In this document: in pieces, positions 48,424 to 63,644 of the stretch
How the letters are laid out: every line of letters starts with the position of its first letter
How positions within the stretch are numbered: position 1 is the stretch's first letter
Source of the DNA: Sphyrna mokarran
Lineage: Eukaryota
Length of the DNA: 64,000 nt
Assembly (NCBI GenBank): GCA_024679065.1
Contig: JAGIQG010000010.1
Location: 47,120,001 to 47,184,000 of the forward strand
Direction of reading: 5' to 3'
The notes under the pieces: generated by a model
What the model was told of the DNA's origin: nothing
The model's input: only the letters and a program-made list of their open reading frames with translations
Database searches by the model: none
Made by a program: the position numbers and the translations under genes

Positions 48424-49587
48424 GTAATTTTAAACTTTAATTTTCTTCTGAACAGGTCTTATTAATTTGAGAATTGTTTGTATTTTTGGTTTTTTTTTGG
48501 CTGAGGCTCATGGTCTAACAGCTGATCTACTCAAAGACCCCAGGGTAAATACATAATAGATGTTGCCCAGTGTGATCCTTCACCATTGAATGTTTAACAC
48601 AAGTCTTTTTAAGAGATCCTTTAAATATTTTCAATCCCTTTCAAATGGATATAATAGTTCTCATCTTCTGGTGAATAATTTACTCTGAGCTGGATTAGAC
48701 CATTTTGGATGGTTAGATAAATATTCAATAGTTTTTAAAGGATGAAAAAAGTAATCTTTCTATGAGACAATAAAGTTTGAAATGAGTTGAAAGAGTAAAA
48801 AGGAAATACAAAGAAGCAAAAGCAAGATGAAACTAAATGGGAGAGTAAACTGATGACAAGGGCAAACATAAAACTTTAAACTCAAGGTGTTTTTTTTTAA
48901 GTTAAGGCAATGGAATTAAAGACATTTTTTGAAAAAAGTGAAGTTTCAAAGAGTAAGATGGGAAATAATACAAAGATTTATGTACCAAAGAGAAAAGCCC
49001 AAATAAAGAAAAATATTGTTAAAGTATGAAGAAGGGGAGAAAATTTTGGTAAGTCTAAATGTAGTAATATGTTCCATGGATTTTTGACAGAATGAAAGGA
49101 CATTGAAAACTAACACAGCAAGCTTAGGAAAGGTGACTGAGGGTAAGATCCAAGAAATATTTTGAGAATTTTGAAGATGGGAAGAGTTGGAGCAAGGCAG
49201 AGTGTCTAGTAGTAAAATTCTTTAAAAAAACACTTGATAGCTTAATGGCCTGGTACTGCATGAAGTTTAAGGAGAGTGATTGCAAAGAAGGAAAGGAGCA
49301 TAAGAATACGGAAGAGGCCATATGACTTGAAGAATCAGCACAGCCTTGTAGATAGACCAGGACAAAAATTTTCAAATTAGTACACAATGATAACAGAAGA
49401 TCAGTGTGGATGTTTGTTGGGAAAACTTAATTTTGGATAAATTAGATTTTAAACAGATTGAAACTAGGAAGCTTCAAGGAGACCATTGAAAAATTCAGAC
49501 TTAAAGGTGATGAAGAATTTAAGTGGCAGTGGGGATGAGCTTTGGCTCAAAAGACAATTGTTGTTGGTGTAAATGTGATGGTTAGGA

Positions 49588-51865
49588 AGGTGTTAGACTT
49601 GGAAGTTGGTGAACATTTTGGTGATAGTGACCACAATTCGGTTATGTTCACCCTAGTGATGGATAGGGATAGGCATGAAGCTGGGGGCAGTAGTTATAGC
49701 TGGGGGAATGGTAATTATGAGGCCATAAGGAGGGAATTAGGGTGCATAGGTTGGACTAGGAAACTACAGGGACTGGGAACATCTGAAATGTGGAGCTTCT
49801 TCAAGGAGCAGCTGCTGCGAGTCCTTGATAAGTATGTCCCTGTCAGGCAAGGAGGAAATGGTCGAGTAAGGGAACCTTGGTGTACGAAAAAAGTTGATTT
49901 GCTGGTTAAAAGGAAAAAGGAGGCTTATGTCAGAATGAGGCTTGAAGGCTCAGTTAGTGCAATGGATAGCTATAGATTAGCCAGGAGGGAGCTAAAGAGT
50001 GAGTTGAGTAGAGCTAAAAGGGGACACGAGAAGACTTTGGCTGATAGGATTCTCCTTGATCCTAAAGCTTTCTTTAGTTATGTTAAGAATAGAAGATTGG
50101 TTAGGGCAAGATTAGGGCCAGTCAGAGACAGCAGTGGGAAGTTGTGCATGGAGCCTGAAGAGATTGGAGAGGCACTGAATAAATATTTCTCTTCAGTATT
50201 CACGCAGGGAGATGTAAATGTAGTTGTGGAGAACACTGGGATACAGGGTTGCAAACTGCAAAGTATTGAAGTAGATAAGGAGGATGTGCTAGATATTCTT
50301 GAGGGTTTGAAGTTAGATAAGTCCCCTGGGCCGGACGGGATTTACCCTAGGATTCTCTGGAAGGCGAGAGAGGAGATTGCAGAGCCTCTGGCTCTGATCT
50401 TCAGGTCGTCGTTGGTTACGGGTATAGTTCCGGAAGACTGGAGGATAGCGAATGTGGTCCCGTTGTTCACGAAGGGGAAGAGAGACTTTCCAGGGAATTA
50501 TAGGCCAGTGAGTCTTACTTCTGTTGTGGGTAAAGTATTGGAGAGAATTATTAGGGAGAGGATTTATAGTTATTTAGAGAGAAATGAATTGATTGGGGAT
50601 AGTCAGCATGGTTTTGTGAAGGGTAGGTCATGCCTTACTAACCTTATTGAGTTTTTTGAAAAAGTGACCAAAGAGGTGGATGGGGTAAGGCAGTTGATGT
50701 GGTATATATGGACTTTAGTAAGGCGTTCGATAAGGTGGCCCATGGAAGGCTTCTGCAGAAAATGCAGATGTATGGGGTTGAGGGTGATTTAGCTAATTGG
50801 ATTAGGAATTGGCTAGCAGATAGAAGACAGAGGGTGGTGGTGGATGGGAGATATTCATTGTGGAGTTCGGTGACAAGTGGTGTACCTCAGGGGTCTGTTT
50901 TGGGGCCCTGCTGTTTGTAATTTTTATAAATGATCTGGATGAGGGTATTGAAGGATAGATTAGTAAATTTGCGGATGACACTAAAGTCGGAGGATGGTAG
51001 ATAGTGAAGAGGGGTGTTCTAGTTTGCAGAGAGACTTGGACAAGTTGCAGAGCTGGGCCGAGAGGTGGCAAATGGAGTTTAATGTGGAAAAGTGTGAGGT
51101 AATTCCCTTTGGCAGGAATAACAAATGTGTAGAGTATAGGGCTAATGGTAGGACTCTTATTAGTGTTGATGAACAGAGGGATCTTGGTGTATGTGTGCAT
51201 AGATCCCTGAAAGTTGGCAATCAAGTCGATAAGGTTGTTAAGAAGGCATACGGAGTCTTAGCTTTTATTGGTAGGGGGATTGAATTTCGGAGCCGCAACG
51301 TCATGTTGCAACTGTACAAAACTCTAGTGCGGCCGCACTTGGGAGTATTGTGTACAGTTCTGGTCCCCGCATTATAAGAAAGATGTGGAGGCATTGGAGA
51401 GGGTACAGAGGCGGTTTACCAGGATGTTGCCTGGTATGGAAGGCAGGTCTTATGAAGAGAGGCTGAGGTATTTGAGGTTGTTTTCGTTAGAAAGAAGGCG
51501 GCTAAGAGGAGACCTTATTGAAACATACAAGATGATTAGAGGTTTAGATAGGGTGGACAGTGATAGCTTTTTTCCTAGGATGGAGAAAGCTAGCACGAGG
51601 GGACACAGCTTTAAATTAAGGGGTGGTGGTTATAGGACAGATGTCAGAGGTAGGTTCTTTACCCAGAGGGTGGTAAGGGTATGGAATGCCTTGCCTGCGT
51701 CAGTTGTAGATGCGCCAAGTTTGGTGGCGTTTAAGAGGTTCGTAGATAAGTTTATGGATGAAAGGGGAATGGTTTAGGTTAGAGGGTCACTGCTTGTTCC
51801 TAATTGGTCGGCGCAACATCGAGGGCCGAAGGGCCTGTTCTGCGCTATAATGTTCTATGTTCTAT
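49588..51865 (+). mobile_element. Young 5'-truncated CR1 LINE, frameshifted ORF2
   Basis: ORFs 49542..50792, 50699..50920, 50994..51377, 51385..51777 carry CR1 EN/RT motifs; near-identical to 6364-8787 in inverse orientation; taatgttctatgttctat tail. Confidence 0.97.
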
Positions 51866-52144
51866 AAGCTTTGAAAATTAACTTGGGTAAAACAGCACAC
51901 CAGCAGGTTCACCTGAGCAAGTAACCGTGTTACTTGAAGTGAACTATGGAGTTATATTTTGGCTGGATATGGTATTGGTTTTACATATGTTAAAATAGAC
52001 AACAATCTGTTTTATCTTCCAATAGACTCCAACAATCTGAACTTCCAATCAGCTCAATATCAGCCAGTGGGCTAAATTTGGGTATTATCAGCATTCATTT
52101 AGAAGCTGACCTTGTCCTTTCAGATACCATTTGAGAAGAAGCAT

Positions 52145-53410
52145 TTAGAACCTAGAACACTACAAGTTGACTTGTAGTCGGCCCACAAGTTGCATTGATC
52201 ATATCCCTACTTACCAGGCCTAGCTATAACCCTCAACCCCATTAAATCCCATGTACTCATCCAGAAGTCTCTTAAAAGACCCCAACAAGTTCGCCTCCAC
52301 CACCGCTGACGGCAGCCAATTCCACTCACTCACCACCCTCTAAGTGAAAAACTTACCCCTGACATCACTCAGTACTACTCCCCAGCACCTTAAACCTGTG
52401 TCCTCTCGTAGCGACCATTTCAGCTCTGTGAAACAGCTTCTGAGAATCCACCTTATCTATATCTCTCAACATCTTACAAAACTCTATCAGGTCGTCTCTC
52501 ATTCTTTTTCTCTCCAGGGAGAAAAGACCTAGCTTCCTCAACTATCCTCATAAAGCATACCAAATCCAGGCAACATCCTTGTAAATCTCCTCTGCACTCT
52601 TTCAATAGCTTCCACATCCTTTTTGTAGTGAGGCAACCAGAACTGTGCACAGTACTCCAAGTGGAATCAGACAAGAGTCTTTTAAAGTTGCAGCATTATC
52701 TCCCAACTCCTAAACTCAGTCCCTCGATTAATGAAGGCTAGTACACCGTACGCCTTCTTAACCACATCCTCCACTTGTGAGCTGCTTTAAGTGTCCTGTG
52801 GACCCGGACCCCAAGGTCATTCTGATCCCCTACACTGCTCAGAGTCCTACCCTTAATATTATACTCCTTCATCTCATTGGACCTGCCAGTATGGACCAGT
52901 ACACATTTATCTGCGTTGAAGTCAATCTGCCACTTCTCCGCCCAGTCTTGCATTCTATCTGTGTCTCAATGCAACTTCTAACATCCCTCCAGACTATCCA
53001 CAACACCACCAACCTTCGTGTTGTTGGCAAACTTACCAACCCATCCCTCCACTTCCTCATCCAGGTCATTTATGAAAATGACAAAGGTCCTAGAACAAAT
53101 CCTTTGGGCACCCCACTGGTGACCAACCTCCATGCAGAAAAAGACCCATCCACAACGACTCTCTGCCTTCTGCAGCCAAGCTAGTTCTGGATCCACCAGG
53201 CAAAAGCCCCTTGGATTCTATGTCCTCTCAGATTTTCAATAAGTCTTGCATGGGGGACCCTATGAATGCCTTGCTGAAGTCCATATAAACTACGTCCATC
53301 GTTCTTCCTTCGTCAATGTGTTTCGTCACATTTTCAAAGAACTCAACTAGGCTCGTAAGGCATGACCTGCCTTTGACAAAGCCATACTGACTACTTCTGA
53401 TCATATATAC
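52145..53410 (-). mobile_element. CR1 LINE RT + 3' end
   Basis: [50 protein letters not shown]. Confidence 0.93.
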
Positions 53411-53412
53411 CA

Positions 53413-53604
53413 AGCTTTAAATTCAAGCTTCAAGGTTTTAACAAGCTTGATTATATTTGACAGGCCAAATTATATTTAGAGACATGGTTCATGTCATTTG
53501 GTTCACAGCTTTAAATTCAAGCTTCAAGATCTTAACAAGCTTGATTATATTTGACAGGCCAAATTATATTTAGAGATATGGTACATGTCATTTCGTTCGC
53601 AGCT
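53413..53604 (+). repeat. Tandem duplication, 94-bp unit x2
   Basis: Units 53413-53506 and 53507-53600 differ at 6 positions; AGCT at each junction. Confidence 0.95.
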
Positions 53605-54516
53605 GCAGTTGGAATACTTTGTGCAGCTTTGGACACACGGTTATACAAAGGATACAGAAGCAATTAGTGAATAACATAAATGTAGTAGAATGTTTCTTGC
53701 AATGAGTTTTCAAGACCTGAGAATTAGGATTTTTATTGCTAAAGTTTAAGAGATGAGCTAACATGATTAAGAAATTAGAATTAGATAGAGACAAGTGGTT
53801 TCTATTGGTAGATGAATGGCATAATGAAGTCAGGTTACGATAATCACAAAATGAAGAGTAGACTTAAAAACTGGTTGGAATGTAGAATTTTATTTTACAA
53901 ACTATCGTTGAATAAAGTCTTAAATTATTTTAAAAGGTAATTACTATTTCATGAGAAAAGTAATGTTGAAGGATATGCAAAGCTATTTCTATGGATGCTA
54001 CGTTGTGAAAACATCTTTTAGACAGCATAATTGATCAAAGATTATTGCTTAAAATAAAAATGTTTCTGAGTGGTACATAGTTTATTCAATGGTTGTGTTC
54101 AGTTTCCTGAGGGGATTATGTGGTTATATTTTATTTTTTCCATTTGAGATATTGCAATGCCCATATACTTCTAACGGCAGGGGGACCTATGTTATATGTT
54201 GAAGTGGTGTTCCTTTAAGAACTAGATTTCTTGTAAAAAGAAATTTGCTTCCAGTTACTGATTGTAAACAAGAAGTTATTTATAGGGAGGACTAGATTCT
54301 GTGTGCAGTTTAGTTTTTGAACAAGTCGGCTGTAGGGAAAATCTTTTCGGAACAGAATATAATTGAAATTTTGTGTAAATACTTGATAATTGAAAGATTC
54401 TACAAACCAAGTTGGACTGAGGAAAGACAGAGAGAGAGAGTTCCTAGATGCAAGACTCCAGAGTTCAAAAACATTAAAACCAGAGTTCTGAACCACCAGT
54501 GATGCCTGGGTTACTG

Positions 54517-55047
54517 AGAACTCAGTAAGAATCTAGCAACACCAATTTTAAATCCAACCGATTTATTTGATAGTAAATTTGCGAGCTTACGACACTCTGT
54601 GTCTTTGTCAGGCAAATGCAGCGTTCTGGTCTGCAATAGCACACAGGACAATAGGACGGTCTTAATAAGGATCTTGGCTTCATGACGCACTATCTGTAAC
54701 CCCCGTAACTTGCCTGGGTTAGCAAAAAACCTCACTTACTGTGCTGTCTGGAGAAAATACACAATTCTCTAACAATGCTCAGGATTCCCTTCACCCACAT
54801 TGTTAGCCACTTTAACACTTGAATAGCAGGTTAGATGTAAGGATTCGCATTCTAATCAGCAATCTGTGACTGTCTGTGTTGATATGTGTGCTATTGCAGA
54901 CCAGAACACTTCATTTGCCTGACGAAGACACAGAGTGTCGAAAGCTCGCAAATTTGCTATCAAATAAATCGGTTGGATTTAAAATTGGTGTTGCTAGATT
55001 CTTTCTGAGTTCTTACTACCCCAGTCCAACGCCGGCACCTCTACATC
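54517..55047 (+). mobile_element. Penelope-like element 3' end with inverted terminal repeat (arms 54517-54645 / 54885-55013) and target-site duplication
   Basis: TSD ATGCCTGGGTTACTG at 54502-54516 and 55048-55062. Arms 123/129 complementary. Spacer encodes DGLNKDLGFMTHYL* (54655-54699), like the C-terminus of PLE GIY-YIG ORFs. Hammerhead motif in the arms. Confidence 0.88.
54913..54953 (+). ncRNA. Minimal type I hammerhead ribozyme, intact core
   Basis: ATTTGC-CTGACGA-A-GACAC(AGA)GTGTC-GAAA-GC-TC-GCAAAT: helix I 6 bp, helix II 5 bp, palindromic AGCT helix III; predicted cleavage after C54947. Confidence 0.85.
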
Positions 55048-55529
55048 ATGCCTGGGTTACTGGGACTTTATAACTATGTGATGGTTGGAGAGATCCAAAG
55101 GAACAGGTTTCCTTAAGAGAGCAGAAATCTTAACTCTTATGAATCTTTGAAATAAGTGGTTAATCTTCCACTTCCTGATAAGTATATGACTTGAGTTTTT
55201 TGTGGGGATGTCAGTCAAATTGGTGTAGAAAAAAATTTGATTTAAGATGTTCACTTTAGAGCAACGATATTCATTATACTTTCTTTAACGGAACTGGCTG
55301 GTTGTCTAAGTTGAATGTAATTAGTGATATTCAAGTTCTTTGAATTTTCTGTAAAATTAGTTAGCTTTAAACACTGAAGTTTATGGCTTCAGTCTTCTAG
55401 TTCACCTTGTTTGATAACTGGTTCATGGGTTCAATTCTCGTACCTGCTGAGGTTATTTCTCAACCTTGCCCTGCAAATTATGCTGCTGAATGTTGCAGCG
55501 TCTGCATGTTTTTCACTTTGTTAAAGCTT

Positions 55530-55834
55530 GGGCAGCATGGTGGCACAGTGGTTAGCACTTCTGCCTCTCCATGCCAGGGACCTGGGTTTGATTCTTGATT
55601 TCGGTGACCATCTGTGTGGAGTCTGCACATTCTCCCTGTGTCTGCGTGGGTTTCCTCCGGTGCTCCGGTTTCCTCCCACAATCTGAAGGACGTGCAGATT
55701 AGATGCATTGGCCATGTTAAATTCTCCGTCTGTGTACCCGAACAGGTGCCGAAGTGTGATGACTAGGGAATAAAGTAACTTCATTGCAATGTTAATGTAA
55801 GTCTATTTGTGACACTAATAAATAAATTAAAAAA
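55530..55834 (+). mobile_element. V-SINE (HE1-like head) with alternative AATAAAT tail
   Basis: gggcagcatggtggcacagtggttagcac head, V-domain, tail cttcattgcaatgttaatgtaagtctatttgtgacactaataaataaa. Confidence 0.9.
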
Positions 55835-56100
55835 GAACTTTTTTGAGCCCTCAGTACAAAATAAAGATTGAGAGCAAGGGGCCTTTAATTAGCCTTCTTT
55901 CTGCTAGACGGCTTCTAATTGACCATCTAATGCTTGATTTGATAAGTTGACAGATGGGGAGGTGTTGGAAGTAGCAGACTTCTGTTTCCCCACCCTTTTG
56001 AAAAATGCAAAATCCAACCGCTAATGAGCTTTATCTTTTGACACTAATGGATATGGCCTCATTGGATGTTAAATGTAACCAATGTCATTGTTACTACACT

Positions 56101-56223
56101 CACCTGATGAAGTGGCAGTGCTCCGAAAGCTTGTGCTACCAAATAAACCTGTTGGATTTTAACCTGGTATTGTGAGATTTCTAATCATGCCTATCTCAAT
56201 CCAATGCCGTCATGTCCTCATCA
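56101..56223 (+). mobile_element. Solo Penelope-like terminal repeat with hammerhead motif (56101-56135)
   Basis: CAC-CTGATGA-A-GTGGC(AGT)GCTCC-GAAA-GC-TT-GTG, followed by caaataaacctgttggattttaacctggt...catcat, which is homologous to 54961-55049. Confidence 0.8.
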
Positions 56224-56399
56224 TGACTACTCTCCTCAGGGCAACAGCATTACTTGTGGCACTGGATTCTTGTGAGGACTGTAGGAACGATTCACAAGGA
56301 TTCCAGTTGTCCTTCAAACTGTTTAAGATGTTCCCTAGCATTTTGTTTTTTTTTAATGACATGCTTAATGTTAGAAGGTGACATCTGCATCATCATGAG

Positions 56400-56715
56400 A
56401 ATGGTGGCATAGTGGTTAGCACTACTGCCTCACAGTGCAGGACTTGGATTCAATTCTCACCTCCACTGTCTGTGGAGTTTGCACATTGTCACCATGTCTG
56501 CTTGGGTTTCTTCTAGGTACCCCAGTTTCCCCCGACAATCTAAAGATGTGCCGGTCAGGTTGATTGGCCATGCTAAATTTTCCTTTAGTGTCATGGAGAT
56601 TAGCGTGATTAATACATGGAATAATGGTGATAGGGCCAGGACGGGATTGTTGTCAGTGTAGGCACAATGCGCCAAATGGCCTCCTTGTACACTCTGTGGA
56701 TTCTATGATTCTATG
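56400..56715 (+). mobile_element. HE1-like V-SINE
   Basis: tRNA-like head, V-domain, (GATTCTAT)2 tail. Confidence 0.9.
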
Positions 56716-56803
56716 GCATCTCAAGCTGTAAAGCTTGAGATGCCAGTGCATTCATGTTAAGCTCCTGTTGTCAGTTGAAATTTAAAAATACTGTAATTTA
56801 TAA

Positions 56804-57034
<231 letters not shown>

Positions 57035-60471: not shown

Positions 60472-63352
60472 AAGAACAAAGAACAAAACAGCACAGGAAA
60501 CAGGCCCTTCAGCCCAACGAGCCCGCGCCACCACCCCGATTTTCCCACCTCTACCCACGATCCCTGTCCATGTTTATAGATCTATGGATTAAAAACCAAA
60601 TTTGAGACAATTTAGGGAGAATTTGTTTTGCCAATTAGCCTAAGAGCACATCTTTGGGATGTGGGAGGAAACTGGAGCGCCCGGAGAAAACCCACAAGCA
60701 CGGGGAGAATGCGCAAACTCCCACAGACACAGGCCCAAACCCATGTATCTGCACAGCACAGAGATAGTCACTGAGCTGTCGTGTTGCCCATCAAATGGTC
60801 CAGGTCAAGCATACACTAACGACGTGAAGCAGTAGGGTACTCTCGAAAAAGATCCAAGAGCAGTCCTCTCACGACCCATCGCGTGCATGCCCCTCGTTAG
60901 ACAACAAGGTGGACCAAAGTACCTGTAGGGTAAAAACAAGTACATCAATATCATCATCTATTTACACACTTCCCAGGGACTCCCAAGGTTCATGATCCTT
61001 ATTTTAAATCAGTTTTCTATACCCCTCCATTTCCATTCTGTTCATGTGCCCATCTAAGTATTTCTTAAATAACTCCAGAGTACCTGCCTCCACCACTTTA
61101 CTTGGCAGTGCATTCCATACCCGCACCACCCTCTGTGTGAAAAAACTCCCTCTAGCATCCAAATTATACCTTACCCCCTCACCCTAAGCCCGTGACCCCT
61201 CGTGCTATTTGAGTCCATCCTAGGAAAAAGCTTAACCCTGTTTACTCTATCTATACCCCTCAAAATCTTGTACACCTCTATCAGATCTCCTCTAAGTCTA
61301 CGTCTTTCTAAGAAAACAGTCCCAATTTGCCTAATCTCTCCTCGTAACTCAGACCTTCCATACCAGGCAGCATCCTGGTAAACCTCCTCTGCACTCTCTC
61401 CAGAGTCTCCACGTCCTTCTGCAACCAGAACTGGACGCAGTGTTCCAAATGAGGTCTAACCAGCGTTTTATACAACTGCAACATTAAAGGCCAGCTCTTG
61501 TACTCTATACCCCTTCCTATAAAGGCTAACATACTGTATGCTTTCTTCACAACCTTCTCCACTTGCTCTGCCACCTTCAGAGACTTGTTCACCTGCACCC
61601 CCAGGTCCCTCTGCGTTTCTATACTCTTAATAGGTCTACCCTTTATCATATACCTCCCCCCTACATTCTTTCTGCCGAAATGCATCACCTCACATTTATC
61701 AGGATTGAATTCCATCTGCCATCTGTCTGCCCAAGCTACCAGCCTATCTATGTCCTGCTGCATCGTCTGATAATGCTCCTCACTATCCGCAAGTCCAGCC
61801 ATCTTTGTACCGTCTGCAAACTTGCTGATCACTCCACTTACTCCCTCTTCCAAGTCATTTATATATATTACAAATAGAAGAGGTCCCAGTACCGAGCCCT
61901 GCGGCACACCACTAGTGACCAACCTCCAGCTAGAGAAACACCCTTCCACTATTACTCTCTGTCTCCTATTACCAAGCCAGTTACTTATCCATTTAGCTAC
62001 CTGTCCTTGTATCCTATTTGTCTTGACCTTCTCGACTAACCTCCCATGAGGGACTTTGCCAAACACCTTACTAAAATCCAAATAGACAACATCAATGGCT
62101 TGCCCGTCGTCCACTGATTTCGTCACCTCCTCAAAAATTCTACCAGATTTGTAAGGCACGACCTCCCCTTAACAAATCCATGCTGCGTATCCCTAATCAG
62201 ATCGCAATGCTCTAAGTGCCTATACATCCTATCTCTAAGAATCCCCTCCAACAGCTTCCCTACCACCGACGTCAAACTCACCGGCCTATAATTTCCAGGG
62301 TTATCCCTACTACCCTTTTTAAACAACGGTACAACATTAGCTATTCTCCAGTCCTCTGGGACCTCACCTGTGTCCAAGGAAGAGACAAGGATTTGCGTCA
62401 TAGGCCCAGCAATTTCACTTCGCACCTCTCTAAGCAGTCTGGGATAAATGCCATCAGGCCCAGGAGATTTATCTGTTTTAATGCTACCTAGAAGCTCTAA
62501 CACTTCCTCCCTCGGTATGGATATTTCCCTCAATTGGTCCACAGCTCCCTCAGAGACAGGAGCTGTCAACAAGCCCCTCTCCTTTGTGAATACCGACGCA
62601 AAGTATTCATTCAGGATCTGCGCCATTCCCTCGGCCTCTAAGCACAGTTCCCTCCTCTGTCCCTAAGAGGTCCGATTTTTCCTCTAACCACCCTTTTATT
62701 CCTAACATAGGAGTAAAAAGCCTTTGGGTTTTCTTTAATCCTATCCGCCAAAATCATTTCATGCCCCCTTTTTGCCCTTCTAACTCCCTGTTTGAGCTCC
62801 CTCCTACTCTCTCTATATTCCTCCAATGCTGTCTCGGTTCCCAGCTGCTTCGACCTATCATACGCTCCTCTTTTCTTCCTAACCAAGTCCTCAATATCCC
62901 TAGAAATCCATGGCTCTCTAATCCTACCTTTCCCATCCTTACTCTTGGCCGGCACATACTTATCTTGCAACATTTTCAGTATTCCCTTGAAAGAGTCCCA
63001 CGTGCCTAGCGTGGACTTACCCTCAAACAACCGTTCCCAATCAGTTTCCCTAAGTTTCTGTCTAATTCGACCGTAGTTAGCCTTCCCCCGATTCAGCACC
63101 CTGCCCCTAGGGCAACAAGCATCCTTTTCCATCTGAATCCTAAAGTAGACAGAATTGTGGTCACTGTTGGCCACATGTTCCCCTACTACAACGTCAACCA
63201 CCTGTACTAGCTCATTACTCAGAACTAAATCCAATATAGCCCCTTCTCTAGTCGGGCTAGCCACATACTGTTCCAACGATCCTTCCAGTACACATTTTAC
63301 AAATTCCTGCCCATCCAAACCCCCAGCTCTAGGTACTTTCCAATCCACCCTA
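60472..63352 (-). mobile_element. Young CR1 LINE (EN C-terminus + RT, frameshifted) with long 3' region containing a V-SINE domain
   Basis: ORFs 62638..63369, 62123..62626, 61308..62159 with EN/RT motifs (FADDT altered to FADGT); ORF2 end ~61018; V-domain ~60620-60735; (TTCTTTG)n tail at ~60472-60490. Confidence 0.93.
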
Positions 63353-63644
63353 GGGAGATTTTGTTTCAATTTGCAATTTTTAAAAAATATTCCTAGCTTC
63401 GTGCATATGGTTGTCTAACAGTAAATAAATAGTTTTACATTCATTCTAAATCATCTGTTCTTGCAAACTATTTTTGGAGTATCTGTGAATGGCTTAATTA
63501 AGATTTTATGCCTATGTTCTATTTTCTTTAGTTTTTGTTACATAGCTGGGTGGGACTGTATTTGTCTGCTTCCGCTCCTGTCTATCCAGTTTTAATCAGT
63601 GAATATTTGGAATTGCTCCTCTTCCTACTTCTGCACTAAAATTT

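Follow-up and report, generated by a model that had tools for sequence, protein, structure and literature searches.

Canonical insertions of EN+ Penelope-like elements (PLEs), as described in the available parts of Arkhipova et al. 2013 (PMC3846280), Craig et al. 2021 (PMC8557442) and Schostak et al. 2008 (PMC2377424), typically consist of inverted arms placed head to head, with a tail of 30-40 nt at one end only, a short target-site duplication and a pseudo-LTR leading into the ORF start. The insertion studied here and its family have the same organisation. Duplications are 8-10 bp long in the rotifer cases covered and mostly 12-13 bp in the shark family, whose symmetric TG/CA frame we did not find for canonical EN+ PLEs in the accessible sections of these three papers. 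The proposals made for such insertions, in the parts of PMC3846280, PMC8557442 and PMC11167929 at hand, are self-priming, resolution by a nuclease, or two reverse transcriptase (RT) start sites unlinked to inversion.

Minimal hammerhead ribozymes (min-HHRs) of metazoan PLEs (Cervera and de la Pena 2014, PMC4209133, in part) are like the shark motif in the missing helix III, the palindromic positions 15.2/16.2, the extra nucleotide before helix II, the G10.1-C11.1 pair and the location in the pseudo-LTR; helices I and II have 6 and 5 bp in the shark insert versus 4-5 and 7-8 bp in Schistosoma families. Cleavage of single min-HHRs was undetectable and dimers cleaved little, according to the available part of that study. 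In PAc, the Poseidon element of Anolis (Frangieh et al. 2024, PMC11167929, in part), the protein cleaves and extends both strands, has two start sites one tail apart, prefers ATT sites and primes without homology; the hammerhead motif is cut only in the presence of the element's protein, and uncut RNA is the main template. Inversions are not discussed in the part of this paper that was available. The shark family appears to share with PAc the adjacent RT starts that define the tail, a cut of two strands followed by extension and the uncut RNA template; it differs in its Neptune-type linker, its TG/CA rather than ATT preference, its short primer-template matches and its RT starts at and upstream of the AUG, those of PAc lying inside the ORF.

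The insertion analysed here lies in a 64-kb window, the whole stretch of Sphyrna mokarran DNA under study, and is an ordinary member of this known kind, among thousands of truncated Penelope-like copies. We favour, with a probability of roughly 0.8, the reading that a Neptune-type PLE was inserted here in truncated, two-armed form, that its protein likely nicked both target strands about 13 bases apart and copied the RNA from both cut ends, and that the hairpin and a probably inactive ribozyme are by-products. The family-level data on mechanism are of more interest than the locus itself, the family statistics bearing on how PLEs come to have inverted arms and a tail on one side only.

The insertion and its family

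The exons flanking the host intron match the myotubularin domain and the downstream one scores 119 bits to MTMR2 versus 99 bits to MTMR1. Both the intron (48424-56842) and the motif lie on the forward strand, so that the hammerhead is sense to the MTMR2 transcript, as an earlier note made from the letters alone had it. We take the intron to be intron 9 in the human MTMR2 numbering. The same intron contains an older Penelope pseudo-LTR remnant (56098-56225, forward strand) with 69% identity to the young family over positions -93 to 0; its hammerhead (56098-56137), 1.2 kb downstream, has an intact core and one mismatch in helix II. Broken reverse transcriptase frames of non-LTR retrotransposon type, presumably CR1/L2-like LINEs, are found in the host intron (49539-53416, mixed strands) and in a later one (61171-63414, reverse strand). 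Two related short interspersed repeats with a tRNA-like start, which we assume to be a shark SINE, occupy 55534-55762 and 56398-56702, and a tandem pair of 94-bp copies with 94% identity is present at 53413-53600.

Table 1. Coordinates in the window of the insertion, its parts and the host intron
Feature	Position	Strand	Remarks
Intron of the host gene, myotubularin-related with MTMR2 as best match	48424..56842	+	
Left copy of the target-site duplication	54502..54516	+	repeat of 15 bp; the true duplication probably has 13 bp and starts at 54504
Inverted tail-less arm	54517..54645	-	element positions -165 to -37
Filler of 7 nt at the central junction	54646..54652	.	short stretches of both adjoining sequences recur in it
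Tailed arm, 3'-terminal ~398 nt of a probably Neptune-type Penelope-like element	54653..55050	+	97% identity to a long copy
End of the RT-GIY-YIG ORF, 14 codons plus stop	54655..54699	+	
Minimal type I hammerhead	54913..54953	+	core intact; 6 bp in helix I and 5 bp in helix II
PLE "tail", 37 nt	55014..55050	+	exclusive to the sense arm; from the arm ends and the available parts of PMC8557442 and PMC11167929
Right copy of the target-site duplication	55048..55062	+	first 3 nt are also the element end

Element positions are counted from 0 at 55050, the G of the ATG at 55048-55050 that ends the tailed arm and serves in tandem copies as start codon of the ORF. On this scale the insert is composed of a sense arm (-398 to 0) and an inverted arm (-165 to -37), joined through a filler whose pattern resembles microhomology-mediated end joining. 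The 129-bp arms reported previously (54517-54645 and 54885-55013, with 6 mismatches and 239 nt between them) were found again; a repeat finder extends them by 11 bp, to 140 nt at 94%, and the added 11 bp fall within the duplication and agree with the next 11 nt of the element at 8 Watson-Crick positions and one G-U. The spacer frame read in the earlier note, 54655-54699, does translate to DGLNKDLGFMTHYL*, which is the C-terminus of the GIY-YIG domain of the element.

The direct repeat is identical at 15/15 positions (54502-54516 and 55048-55062), and the suspicion that its start may be element-derived fits, the first ATG of the repeat being identical to the element's own end. TG at 54500-54501 is the left target half-site of the family, while the right one reads AC here, not CA; the family target motif suggests that the true duplication has 13 bp and starts at 54504. 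That the duplication is real is indicated by the duplication finder, positive in 56/63 other head-to-head insertions versus 1/248 swapped-flank controls. None of the contigs of four sequencing runs spans the insert, and family copies swamp the matches.

The proposed Penelope-like origin was confirmed by a search of the animal's own genome, which gave 4,245 candidates; the 40 that were scored cover mostly 54653-55050 at 94-97%. In the near-complete copy L031 the segment from -137 to 0 precedes the ORF and recurs at the 3' end as a pseudo-LTR, and the assignment of the hammerhead to this repeat is upheld. The window itself holds only the last 14 codons of the ORF, which in long copies encodes RT and then GIY-YIG (RVT_1, E 1.7e-9; GIY-YIG above cut-off, E 6.9e-5). 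Translations of L033 and L035-L038 carry a CX4CxxC linker between RT and endonuclease (EN). A CX2-5CxxC linker at this place defines the Neptune and Nematis clades (PMC8557442, in part), and Neptune is the vertebrate clade with such a linker (10.64898/2026.07.22.740005, in part); the element is classed as probably Neptune-type from the linker and this vertebrate range, not from an RT tree.

Exact 29-mer counts are at least 281 for the hammerhead variant of the insert, at least 3,388 for its subfamily and at least 16,159 for the wider family, which is present too in sequencing runs of three other organisms. An endonuclease search gave 66,909 first-look candidates; among the 150 matches scored, a single one is open over 906 aa, about the length of the whole ORF. 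Between sister subfamilies the 3' strand of helix I varies, and the sequence immediately downstream is shared. A non-LTR retrozyme, that is, a head-to-tail hammerhead tandem, was rejected as a description of the insert, which has one sense copy, a head-to-head partner and an ORF remnant.

The frequency of the two-armed shape was estimated from the first 100 subfamily matches along one contig, taken in genome order. An inverted partner adjoins the 5' end of 56 of these arms; 40 arms are solo, and for 4 the fetched DNA ends too early. By insertion, 44/88 are head-to-head (43/84 after merging four double entries), and the whole hammerhead is found in both arms of 17 of the 44.

The hammerhead motif and its antisense arm

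The earlier note announced a full minimal type I hammerhead. Helix I, CUGACGA, helix II, GAAA and CUC are placed as it said; "full" is overstated, as there is no helix III loop. A minimal hammerhead descriptor gives a single match in the 64-kb window, both strands included, and none in 40 Markov-resampled windows, whereas the proposed Rfam check yielded five chance matches and no hammerhead match at E<=10. Helix III is replaced by an AGCU palindrome, with the predicted cut after 54947; since GAAA-G-C-UC lacks the helix III loop, the junction is unable to close as a monomer, and the motif requires a partner. A canonical monomer-active hammerhead was rejected on these two grounds, a helix III that is not closable in one copy and the absence of an Rfam match at E<=10.

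Conservation of the motif is visible at the level of the family. Among 18 rows selected on core and partial pairing, 92% of the cells are paired and 8/11 pairs have two-sided changes, with 18-49% in slid controls; positions 15.2/16.2 are GC in 75/88 motif strings. The retention of the core and the covariation of the helices across subfamilies thus argue that the motif was selected in the element lineage. The core is intact in 75/141 copies (a count that leaves out 32/173 young arms found through the hammerhead pattern), post-insertion decay being mainly at CpG sites, so the intact core of the MTMR2 insert is unremarkable. A private A-to-G change is present at 54956, where the equivalent position is A in 136/141 copies; through this change the 3' strand of helix I comes to lie within a perfect 10-nt palindrome (54948-54957). 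By analogy with other min-HHRs, we predict that this single motif is inactive in the MTMR2 pre-mRNA, whether or not the arms are there. The intronic CPEB3 ribozyme (PMC10919898, in part) is likewise a ribozyme motif in a sense intron; it is monomer-active and its effect on the gene was tested, whereas the shark motif is one of thousands of decaying repeats.

The 5' ends of the copies bear on whether the ribozyme cut the RNA that was being copied. They lie at -130 to -165, upstream of the hammerhead, in 40/96 cases, with no pile-up at the cut site, which suggests that the copied RNA was mostly uncut and that the conserved ribozyme seldom cut it. Two copies start exactly at the cut site (-102) and prompted a genome-wide test. 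Nine of 3,388 matches have no upstream bases, 5 of the 9 being clean at -102, versus about 13 expected by a hand estimate from the neighbouring rate (9/96 ends over 27 nt). With no enrichment of 5' ends at the cut site, an in vivo cleavage footprint was rejected. A shifted control (2,304 matches) was set aside as mis-specified, its matches being mostly sister subfamilies.

The earlier note proposed that the upstream arm acts as a cis off-switch on an otherwise active ribozyme in the MTMR2 pre-mRNA, a role that we judge extremely unlikely. Its structural premise stands. The arms would pair in the pre-mRNA, in a duplex computed at -218.7 kcal/mol that is predicted to sequester the motif fully, the modelled pair probabilities of helices I and II being about 0.8-0.9 when the upstream sequence is omitted and 0.0 when the left arm is present. 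The sense core is intact whereas the antisense copy in the inverted arm is dead (G8 to A, A13 to U), the covarying helices mean that the motif was once functional in the element lineage, and the second, older motif lies on the same strand. The evidence does not support the function itself. Helix III cannot form in the monomer, so there is probably nothing to switch off, in line with the lack of cleavage by single min-HHRs (PMC4209133, in part) and the protein dependence of the anole PLE ribozyme (PMC11167929, in part). With the spacer present and the left arm absent, the helices are predicted to form with a probability of 0.2-0.3 only. Intact cores are the default in the family. The arms look neutral: their divergence, 3.5%, is the family median, and the private changes, 3 per arm in 129 bp, include none that is compensatory and give no sign of selection. 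Finally, the antisense arm comes first from either side in any head-to-head insertion, so that "caging" follows automatically from a geometry found in about half of the family's insertions.

A cis dimer with the older motif at 56098-56137 was rejected, its helix I cross-pairs numbering only 3 (two of them G-U) and 1, which is too weak. ViennaRNA dimer energies (-16.1 for a one-site dimer, -18.8 for two monomers) are unsuited to a double hammerhead and were not used. No caged intronic PLE ribozyme was found in the literature covered, outside which several older PLE papers fall. Hammerhead-bearing retrozymes are depleted in Xenopus introns (preprint 10.64898/2026.07.22.740005, in part), which indicates that tandem hammerhead motifs can be of consequence to their hosts.

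The insert is plausible as a putative substrate of ADAR or Dicer. If such hairpins are edited, they might by analogy be the shark counterpart of inverted Alu pairs.

Arm ends, duplications and target motif

The 3' ends of the 100 sampled arms are bimodal, with 50 at -4 to 0 and 50 at -27 to -56. One tailed and one tail-less arm are combined in 61 of 63 complete pairs, a set made of three samples of which two were selected for likeness to the query; 2/63 break the rule, and the unselected subset conforms in 34/34 pairs. In 25 held-out pairs, mostly of sister subfamilies, the rule is kept in 23 and broken in 2, L179 and L180 (likely one duplicated insertion) counting as two among the 25.

Exact duplications have 12 or 13 bp in 33/52 cases; 11/63 pairs have no exact duplication of >=8 bp, and 4 more of <10 bp were dropped before the motif count. 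A symmetric motif, TG-NN...NN-CA, frames the duplication from outside, at a distance of two bases on either side: TG occupies -4,-3 in 28/48 pairs and CA +3,+4 in 33/48, for a background of 7.7%. The held-out pairs give 14/19 for TG and 8/19 for CA. Matches of >=2 nt between duplication and element occur at 25/44 inner junctions (8/52 were not anchorable and were left out) and at 25/52 outer ones, 18% being expected; the excess consists of matches of 2-6 nt at both junction types.

The arms of a pair are related in length and in subfamily. Short arms tend to be found together (22, 5, 0, 7; Fisher p 1.5e-4 in the 34 unselected pairs) and arm lengths correlate (Spearman 0.49). Minority letters are shared between arms 77 times versus 11.6 on permutation (maximum 25), after dropping 7/63 pairs with <35 shared columns; these shared subfamily letters do not separate one RNA from two contemporaneous RNAs. 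The tail-less arm reaches >10 nt further upstream in 25/63 pairs and the tailed arm in 24/63, the tail-less one being >100 nt longer in 10/63. Central junctions overlap by 1-13 nt in 35/63 pairs. Among solo arms, 15/40 have an exact duplication of >=8 bp (3/17 of the tailed ones) and 23/40 are tail-less; their ends are imprecise, and the sequence downstream lacks a sharp CA peak.

Origin of the inverted arm

The pattern of ends, duplications and target motif would follow if an RT-endonuclease dimer nicked each strand 2 nt 5' of CA, two symmetric nicks that would leave 3' overhangs of 12-13 nt. One 3' end would prime at an outer RNA site near the AUG of the ORF, and the other at an inner site 33-47 nt upstream, both probably on one RNA. 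The template would be mostly uncut RNA, on which the cDNAs would halt early or run off the 5' end before end-joining. Stated in its strongest form, a two-fold symmetric enzyme would nick TG-N16/17-CA on both strands and prime both 3' overhangs on one RNA, one for each end of the tail; this single event would account for the 12-13 bp duplication, for a tail at one end only and for the inverted arm, and would seed shark introns with thousands of dsRNA hairpins. We give this strong form about even odds. The solo arms fit double priming poorly; also counting against it are the absent right half-site at the MTMR2 locus, the pairs that break the tail rule, and the ATT preference and homology-free priming of the anole protein (PMC11167929, in part). 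The two arms may stem from one RNA or from two.

Could the inverted arm instead arise by fold-back, that is, self-priming of one nascent cDNA, or from an antisense template as for rotifer PLEs? Self-priming on an antisense template was proposed in PMC3846280 (in part), and the frequent central overlaps, the correlated arm lengths and the subfamily letters common to both arms agree with such a route. Fold-back requires that the tailed arm contain the other, however, which is contradicted by the pairs with a much longer tail-less arm; as either arm may reach further upstream, neither was copied from the cDNA of the other as a general route. The existence of tail-less solo arms implies that the inner site primes by itself, and the target motif is symmetric. 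These observations make the explanation unlikely.

Very unlikely, in our view, is that both arms were copied with the tail and that the endonuclease or repair later trimmed one side during resolution. The tail was ascribed to EN-mediated resolution in PMC8557442 (in part), and the inner ends are scattered over about 15 nt (-32 to -47), as trimming might leave them. Against this, the excess of short matches is equal at inner and outer junctions, as priming predicts, and RT starts were mapped to both tail ends in the available part of PMC11167929.

Double priming would tie the two RT starts and the two-strand extension seen in vitro (PMC11167929, in part) to inverted insertions. The literature search found no symmetric PLE target motif and no PLE double priming in its coverage, which takes in the older PLE papers in part. 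The tail rule, the symmetric motif and the fixed stagger together provide the definition of a substrate for testing double priming. In L1 twin priming both 3' ends of the target prime reverse transcription, which yields an inversion; there a different, upstream part of the RNA is inverted, whereas in the shark family one and the same 3' end is copied into both arms, starting at two fixed sites.

Several copies depart from the simple two-armed shape. Three complex inserts (L002:1025-3542, L007 and L057) contain several short direct and inverted pseudo-LTR copies and show read-through into the ORF start, i.e. they are partial tandems. In L015, L017, L030, L132 and L143 the inverted partner derives from inside the ORF and not from the 3' end, which resembles L1-type 5' inversions or interrupted arms. 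The pairs L179 and L180, and L065 and L066, have the same insert boundaries and are probably segmental duplications.
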